A DNA stretch of 64,000 bases, taken from assembly GCF_017348835.2 (NCBI RefSeq), contig NZ_CP071375.1; one strand, given 5' to 3'. Origin of the DNA: Escherichia coli (lineage in GTDB: Bacteria; Pseudomonadota; Gammaproteobacteria; Enterobacterales; Enterobacteriaceae). Every line of letters starts with the position of its first letter. Position 1 is the stretch's first letter. The position numbers and the translations under genes are program-made. Of the stretch, positions 17,489-17,527 are shown one piece after another. The notes beneath the pieces were generated by a model. That model saw only the letters and a list, made by a program, of their open reading frames with translations. It had not been told where the DNA came from and made no database searches.

Positions 17489-17527
17489 TGTAAATATCCT
17501 GGCATTACTAATGCCAGGATATTTACA
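17489..17527. repeat. 39-bp perfect palindrome between convergent ykgG and ykgH
   Basis: TGTAAATATCCTGGCATTA-C-TAATGCCAGGATATTTACA read directly from the sequence. Confidence 0.8.

Follow-up and report, generated by a model that had tools for sequence, protein, structure and literature searches.

Between the convergent genes ykgG and ykgH of Escherichia coli lies a long palindrome, and the question it raises is what such an element does at this place: whether it ends transcripts from one side or from both, binds a protein or forms a cruciform as DNA, or has no selected role at all. We analysed it in a window of 64,000 nt (contig NZ_CP071375.1; the window is the whole stretch of DNA, to which all positions refer unless K-12 coordinates are given) together with published transcript ends of K-12. 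The sequence-only reading of the window had described a 39-bp perfect palindrome at 17489–17527 (19+1+19). The palindrome is indeed there, and a repeat search of the window showed that this extent was short by 1 bp at each end, the perfect inverted repeat being 20+1+20 = 41 bp at 17488–17528. Its parts are:

17488–17507 and 17509–17528: the two palindrome arms, 20 nt each with 1 nt between them, 100% complementary; CTGTAAATATCCTGGCATTA C TAATGCCAGGATATTTACAG, the centre C being 17508.
17498–17518: inner stem-loop, richer in G+C; CCTGGCATTA-C-TAATGCCAGG.
17488–17497: outer left arm, A/T-rich; CTGTAAATAT, pairing with 17519–17528.
17519–17528: outer right arm, A/T-rich; ATATTTACAG, the only U-rich stretch of the + strand 3' of the inner stem.
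17477–17544: imperfect pairing beyond the perfect arms, predicted on both strands; ATGCT..TCTT with AAGA..GGCAT.

The arms had no match elsewhere in the 64-kb window and none in 100 shuffles, with up to three mismatches allowed in both cases, and the 41-bp palindrome is the longest close-spaced inverted repeat across the window; it is real and far above chance expectation. In a 76-nt context its RNA folds at −34.8 kcal/mol on the + strand (z = −8.8) and −36.2 kcal/mol on the − strand (z = −8.2), and the 41-mer folds as DNA at −19.1 kcal/mol (z about −11). The stem of 19–20 bp is extendable to about 28 bp in the RNA fold; its inner part, CCTGGCATTA/TAATGCCAGG, holds six G-C pairs, and the outer arm is itself A/T-rich (ATATTTAC).

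The window holds several other palindromes. A near-perfect one at 22001–22039 (19+1+19, 95%; ACGAAACCTGACATTTTGA/TCAAAATGTCAGGTTTGGT) stands some 25 bp ahead of the hyxR start codon, beside a frameshifted tyrosine recombinase gene; it may relate to the control of hyxR by a Fim-like recombinase. An A/T-rich palindrome at 10480–10511 (16+16 nt, 94%) sits where rclC and an aldo/keto reductase gene converge (placed by coordinates converted from the PE164 annotation), so that here too a terminator-like hairpin separates a convergent gene pair. Perfect palindromes also occur at 8432–8464 (14+5+14) and 21057–21083 (13+1+13).

Membership of the ykgG–ykgH palindrome in a known repeat family would have counted against the sequence-only reading, and the search of genomes for other copies, which the sequence-only reading had called for, found it to be single-copy. 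A sensitive blastn search with a 61-mer (E up to 10) found it in 5141 of the 5426 complete E. coli genomes, each time at a single locus (the "2 places" counted by the search are both strands of the same palindrome), so that the many copies typical of REP/BIME, ERIC/IRU and other dispersed extragenic palindromes were not found. No match was obtained in a phage search. The 13 matches in the plasmid collection were all E. coli records, several of them chromosome-sized or ~230-kb K-12 laboratory plasmids, and judged from the records alone they are read as chromosomal DNA or F-primes. No family of Rfam 15 reached its gathering score at the palindrome; the best score was 26.7 bits against gathering scores of at least 95, with generic miRNA-precursor hairpins only. 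When viral and metagenome contigs were scanned for the outer arms with any centre, the full sequence was found at the ykg locus only (17 contigs), along with about 75 unrelated hairpins in AT-rich genomes, flanked by A-runs and T-runs; these look-alikes are ordinary two-way terminator-like hairpins and not homologues of the palindrome. The possibility of an IS or MITE terminal repeat or another mobile-element site was also considered and rejected, as no independent mobile context was recovered. The palindrome is thus neither a repeat family nor a mobile site.

The location given by the sequence-only reading was borne out, the palindrome lying in the 241-bp spacer of a convergent pair whose stop codons are at 17382 (ykgG) and about 17624 (ykgH):

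16687–17382, + strand: ykgG (lutC), last gene of ykgEFG (lutABC-type, lactate utilisation).
17624–17765, − strand: 3' fragment of ykgH, truncated by an IS3-family insertion in this strain.
17530–17535, + strand: equivalent of the K-12 full-length ykgEFG 3' end, which may lie anywhere in GUG|AAAAA.

The palindrome starts 106 nt past the ykgG stop codon, with no strong hairpin between the two. At this place the window matches the pig isolate PE164 and O157:H7 strains at 100% identity, and in K-12 MG1655 the palindrome occupies NC_000913.3 324560–324600, which is 323784–323824 in the old K-12 coordinates (776-bp shift).

Some features of the surroundings were recorded beside the palindrome. ykgH, intact at this place in most E. 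coli genomes, is split here by a 1309-bp IS3-family element at 17766–19074 (ends TGAACCGCCCCGGG...), which we take to be IS629-like and which has the 3-bp TAT on both of its sides. Upstream of the palindrome, a 35-nt block at 17446–17480 (from AACCTGACTTAACCCCGTTCCGTCATGGTTATG) is invariant in nine divergent strains, and the spacer outside this block varies at about 15% of sites in the same strains. The − strand of the block and the bases just after it read as an SD-like GAGGAG, 7 nt, ATG and a 5-codon ORF, MTERG; this mini-ORF was judged to be a chance occurrence, as were a 65-aa ORF on the − strand across the region and one of 22 aa behind ykgG, whose frame is shifted in K-12.

Where the transcripts end was taken from published K-12 maps. 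Supplementary Data 1 of Yan et al. 2018 (SMRT-Cappable-seq) lists a full-length forward transcript from the ykgE start site (TSS 321483) to TTS 324602 that covers b0306, b0307 and b0308 and is labelled "novelTTS"; of the 228 reads at this TSS, 40 end at TTS 324602, 20 end within 50 bp downstream of it and 15 continue past it, the median read-through being 78 nt. Compared with the sequence, this TTS is 2 nt past the palindrome, which offers a concrete structural reason for the "novel TTS" already listed for the ykgEFG operon. SMRT-Cappable-seq is said to tail RNA with A, and because an A-tailed RNA meets genomic AAAAA here, the true end may lie anywhere in 324602–324607, that is 2–7 nt past the full stem and 12–17 nt past the inner stem, in a single dataset in which priming on the genomic A-run is possible. 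In the Term-seq data of Adams et al. 2021 no + strand 3' end is listed at 32460x–32461x, possibly owing to low expression, and no 3' end on either strand at 32454x–32456x or 32461x–32462x. Supplementary file 2 of the same study gives Rho-termination regions at 324913 on the + strand, antisense to ykgH (score 6.7), and at 324578 on the − strand (score 3.5); these scores refer to 800-nt windows and may reflect antisense transcripts within the AT-rich ykgH rather than read-through from ykgEFG.

The transcript from the other side ends on features of its own:

17531–17537, − strand: UCUUUUU, the U-run on which the ykgH 3'UTR RNA ends; final U at 17531, equal to K-12 324603.
17538–17553, − strand: weak hairpin before the U-run; CAGG-AAUGGAUG-CCUG, −4.0 kcal/mol here and in K-12.

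Two tables in supplementary file 1 of Adams et al. 2021 (Term-seq) carry a − strand 3' end at 324603, scored 43,492 in one and 126,276 in the other. A check of the tabulated 61-mer against the genome put this end on the final U of UCUUUUU, which polymerase coming from ykgH reaches 3 nt ahead of the palindrome. In B2-type strains one substitution turns the preceding hairpin into CAGGAA-UGGA-UUCCUG (−6.0 kcal/mol), and this weak hairpin together with the U-run is probably the ykgH terminator. The ykgH 3'UTR RNA, which spans 17531–17623 on the − strand, appears in RIL-seq as a putative Hfq-bound, 3'UTR-derived sRNA; it was unconfirmed by northern blot in Bar et al. 2021, though RNA-seq reads accumulate there, and the probes of that study map to 17543–17580, just upstream of the U-run. 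The palindrome is thereby set apart from its neighbour, a candidate Hfq sRNA that ends just short of it. The ykgEFG and ykgH RNAs abut at 324602/324603 and do not overlap. The published K-12 ends thus coincide with the ykgH-proximal edge of the palindrome, the outcome of the 3'-end mapping that the sequence-only reading had proposed as a check.

Is the hairpin, then, an intrinsic terminator? The sequence-only reading had found it unusually long for one, which is fair, a 20-bp perfect stem exceeding the usual length, and had noted no T-run after it on either strand; we scanned the flanks and likewise saw no terminator-like site there, with the qualification that the A5 just downstream on the + strand is the U-run where the opposing ykgH RNA ends. 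A G+C-rich stem-loop is present (−34.8 kcal/mol for the whole hairpin). A U-tract directly 3' of the stem is absent, the bases after the full stem being GUGAAAAAG on the + strand and AAGAGGAG on the − strand, and a terminator scan was negative at the palindrome. After the inner stem the sole U-rich stretch is AUAUUUAC, within the outer arm. Each arm is A/T-rich over its outer 10 bp, which resembles the pairing of A-tracts with U-tracts in two-way terminators of other genomes.

The perfect palindrome is one allele among several. Records were counted by exact 61-mer matches among 5144, so that flanking bases also affect the counts:

Perfect, centre C (this window, O157:H7): 352 records, fully paired.
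Perfect, centre G: 1361 records, fully paired.
K-12 type: 1872 records, GGT...CAAT, two central mismatches.
B2 type: 572 records, GAC with centre A, one mismatch.
Other variants: about 990 records.

The perfect form is present in at least 1713 of the 5144 records. For K-12, where the sequence-only reading had proposed to check conservation, the locus itself is present and the perfect pairing is not. The common allelic differences all fall in the inner stem-loop (17502, 17503, 17508 and 17509), and the centre base 17508 is tri-allelic within E. coli (C, G, A). Among nine strains the palindrome varies at 6 of 41 sites and its flanks at 18 of 106 and 11 of 95; four of the six variable palindrome sites lie within the central 8 nt. 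No change occurs in the outer 14 bp of the left arm, and only one of the nine strains has a variant right arm. The stem is preserved and variation is free to occur in the loop region; such a clustering of variants near the loop fits either a mutational hotspot of the hairpin loop or a relaxed constraint on it. Since conservation within E. coli is no higher in the palindrome than in its flanks, selection for the hairpin is not demonstrated. Nor is perfect pairing required, because common alleles with one or two central mismatches still fold (−33.3/−29.1 kcal/mol for the K-12 allele, −25.8/−30.8 kcal/mol for the B2 allele). Wobble pairs were tried as a guide to the functional strand and were uninformative: the K-12 allele has a G-U pair on the + strand, the B2 allele has one on the − strand.

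Two alleles deserve separate mention. In strain RM9088 (L008) an IS1 is inserted inside the right arm, at the equivalent of ~17523 and after GGATAT, a natural disruption allele. In K-12 the centre TGGTATTACCAAT (L001 3573–3585, window 17500–17512) makes a 4+3+4 palindrome, TGGT-N3-ACCA, which arises from two K-12-specific substitutions and adjoins the lactate-utilisation operon; we take it to resemble the operator cores of GntR/FadR-type (PdhR/LldR-like) regulators, as a putative likeness. The natural series of perfect, one-mismatch, two-mismatch and IS1-disrupted alleles is a ready-made set for studying how the perfection of the stem affects 3'-end formation and mRNA stability.

Outside E. 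coli the element disappears. None of the 70 related genomes examined has it downstream of ykgG; Escherichia sp. E1V33, E. whittamii and a divergent "E. coli" representative have unrelated ykgG-downstream DNA and lack ykgH, and the same holds for about a dozen Citrobacter, Pectobacterium, Pasteurellaceae and others, with different ykgG-downstream DNA and no ykgH. In Citrobacter and other relatives a short GC-rich hairpin usually stands directly past the ykgG stop codon. YkgH has homologues in E. coli only and no Pfam domain, an orphan. The palindrome therefore belongs to an E. coli-specific, AT-rich segment with the orphan ykgH, and the unrelated ykgG-downstream DNA of other species offers no basis for a covariation test.

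Taken together, we consider it probable that the palindrome is a 3'-terminal stem-loop that fixes the end of the ykgEFG mRNA, as a weak terminator and/or an exonuclease barrier, and that the ykgH transcript does not use the hairpin. The palindrome would be transcribed as the last ~45 nt of the ykgEFG mRNA and fold into the 19–20-bp stem-loop. Because there is no proper U-tract, only AUAUUUAC in the outer arm, intrinsic termination at the hairpin is likely to be weak at best. Polymerases that run on would be stopped further downstream, probably by Rho, and 3'-to-5' exonucleases would then trim the RNA back to the hairpin, which may be the main origin of the ykgEFG end; by blocking these exonucleases the hairpin would stabilise the ykgEFG message. 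From the other side, the ykgH transcript ends on its own U-run after the weak hairpin, 3 nt short of the palindrome, and residual ykgH transcription past the U-run would meet the hairpin and the Rho-sensitive zone.

The nearest alternative is a true bidirectional intrinsic terminator, in which the inner GC stem and the AUAUUUAC arm would release polymerase arriving from either side and end both ykgEFG and ykgH. The symmetric order of A/T arm, GC stem, loop, GC stem and A/T arm is the layout of a two-way terminator, dozens of terminator-like hairpins unrelated to it have identical outer arms, and the palindrome lies between convergent genes with the + strand RNA ending at the hairpin base. However, of such an element one expects that both RNAs contain the hairpin and end on opposite sides of it, and the − strand 3' end precedes the hairpin, with none listed at 32454x–32456x on the far side; the U-tract is poor, with U at 4 of the first 8 positions, and was not picked up by the scan, and the + strand end is 12–17 nt past the inner stem instead of the usual 7–9 nt. 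That the RNAs abut without overlapping is unlike the described bidirectional terminators and argues against filing the palindrome as one. We therefore regard this explanation as unlikely; of the bidirectional terminator hairpin suggested in the sequence-only reading, the transcript-end hairpin stands for the + strand (TTS 324602) and the bidirectional part does not. It is similarly doubtful that the palindrome is a neutral by-product, left by an inverted duplication or by repeated template-switch "correction" of a quasi-palindrome, with no selected role and with the transcript ends incidental. Its restriction to E. coli in a lineage-specific AT-rich segment, the tri-allelic centre and the central crowding of variable sites, a variability not below that of the flanks and the IS1 in one arm of RM9088 would all agree with such an origin, but they have to be set against arms in which the outer 14 bp on the left never vary and the right side does so in a single strain of the nine. 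Moreover, a hairpin this stable would form in RNA and block exonucleases regardless of selection, so that a physical effect on the ykgEFG 3' end stands in either case.

A role of the palindrome as DNA has also to be weighed. An operator for a dimeric protein or a cruciform might act as a roadblock or regulator, for example by stopping the ykgH polymerase at the U-run, and three features would suit it: a two-fold symmetry that is perfect, a − strand end that falls 3 nt short of the palindrome despite the weak preceding hairpin, and the GntR/FadR-like K-12 centre TGGT-N3-ACCA. The cruciform and the protein-binding site offered by the sequence-only reading nevertheless remained unsupported; as to protein binding, what we found was a weak in-vitro genomic-SELEX peak of RpoE holoenzyme nearby (323832 in old coordinates, ~10–50 bp from the palindrome, low intensity of 5.6). 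We found no literature report of a transcription factor binding at the palindrome, and a full-text search found no paper that quotes its sequence; moreover, it lies between two gene ends and not upstream of a gene, which is atypical for an operator, and its symmetry is broken in most strains. A sigma-54 promoter was considered as well. Such promoters have GG and GC elements 10 nt apart (TGGCAC-N5-TTGCA), and TGGCATTACTAATGCC (TGGCAT-N7-TGCC) has, by eye, a sigma-54-like GG/GC spacing, but neither ykgG nor ykgH is mentioned in the main text of the sigma-54 ChIP-seq paper, which gives no backing to the promoter and counts against a DNA-level site. All this makes a DNA-level site very unlikely. 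In a specific form of it, which we hold to be highly improbable, the palindrome would be a transcriptional insulator, halting the ykgH polymerase as an extruded cruciform or dimeric-protein site and capping the ykgEFG message as RNA; if this were true, the convergent RNAs would meet exactly at 324602/324603 without ever pairing into double-stranded RNA. RNase III accepts duplexes of about two helical turns, and the abutting ends at 324602 and 324603 could in principle result from its cleavage of the ~20-bp stem, whose 19–20 bp, extendable to about 28 bp, are within the accepted range, or of a sense/antisense duplex of the converging RNAs. However, no p19-captured product at 32377x–32382x (old coordinates) is among the entries listed in the accessible part of the tables of Huang et al. 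2020, and we consider such processing extremely unlikely. The strong − strand end despite a weak hairpin, together with the abutment to the nucleotide, is why a DNA-level roadblock or processing keeps a small probability.

The 3'-terminal stem-loop that we favour can finally be set beside known systems. Work associated with Ripley and Lovett reportedly describes quasi-palindromes in E. coli as hotspots of template switching. The palindrome shares with these a short-spacer inverted repeat, central variation and alleles that differ in perfection, but a single switch does not account for the step between the K-12 and perfect alleles, in which each arm carries one change. With the terminators of 3'UTR-derived Hfq-binding sRNAs it has in common a neighbouring RNA, that of the ykgH 3'UTR, which is Hfq-associated by RIL-seq and ends on a U-run; this RNA, however, ends upstream of the palindrome and does not include it. 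For convergent genes, SEnd-seq (Ju et al. 2019) reportedly revealed bidirectional intrinsic terminators, and they resemble the present case in the convergent gene pair and the one symmetric hairpin with A/T-rich outer arms, whereas they differ from it in that the palindrome is poor in U-tract and the RNAs abut instead of overlapping. The remaining comparison is with the 3'-terminal stem-loops that stop exonucleases once termination has been Rho-dependent or leaky, such as trp t' and, as has been argued, REP. The palindrome is unlike them in being single-copy, unrelated in sequence to REP and longer in its stem (perfect 20 bp), and trimming back to the palindrome is a presumed step. It is like them in being a very stable hairpin without a U-tract, in having the ykgEFG 3' end a few nt past its base and in having a Rho-sensitive zone downstream. 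The palindrome would thus be an ordinary intergenic transcript-end hairpin, an element of a familiar kind in a lineage-specific, single-copy form.
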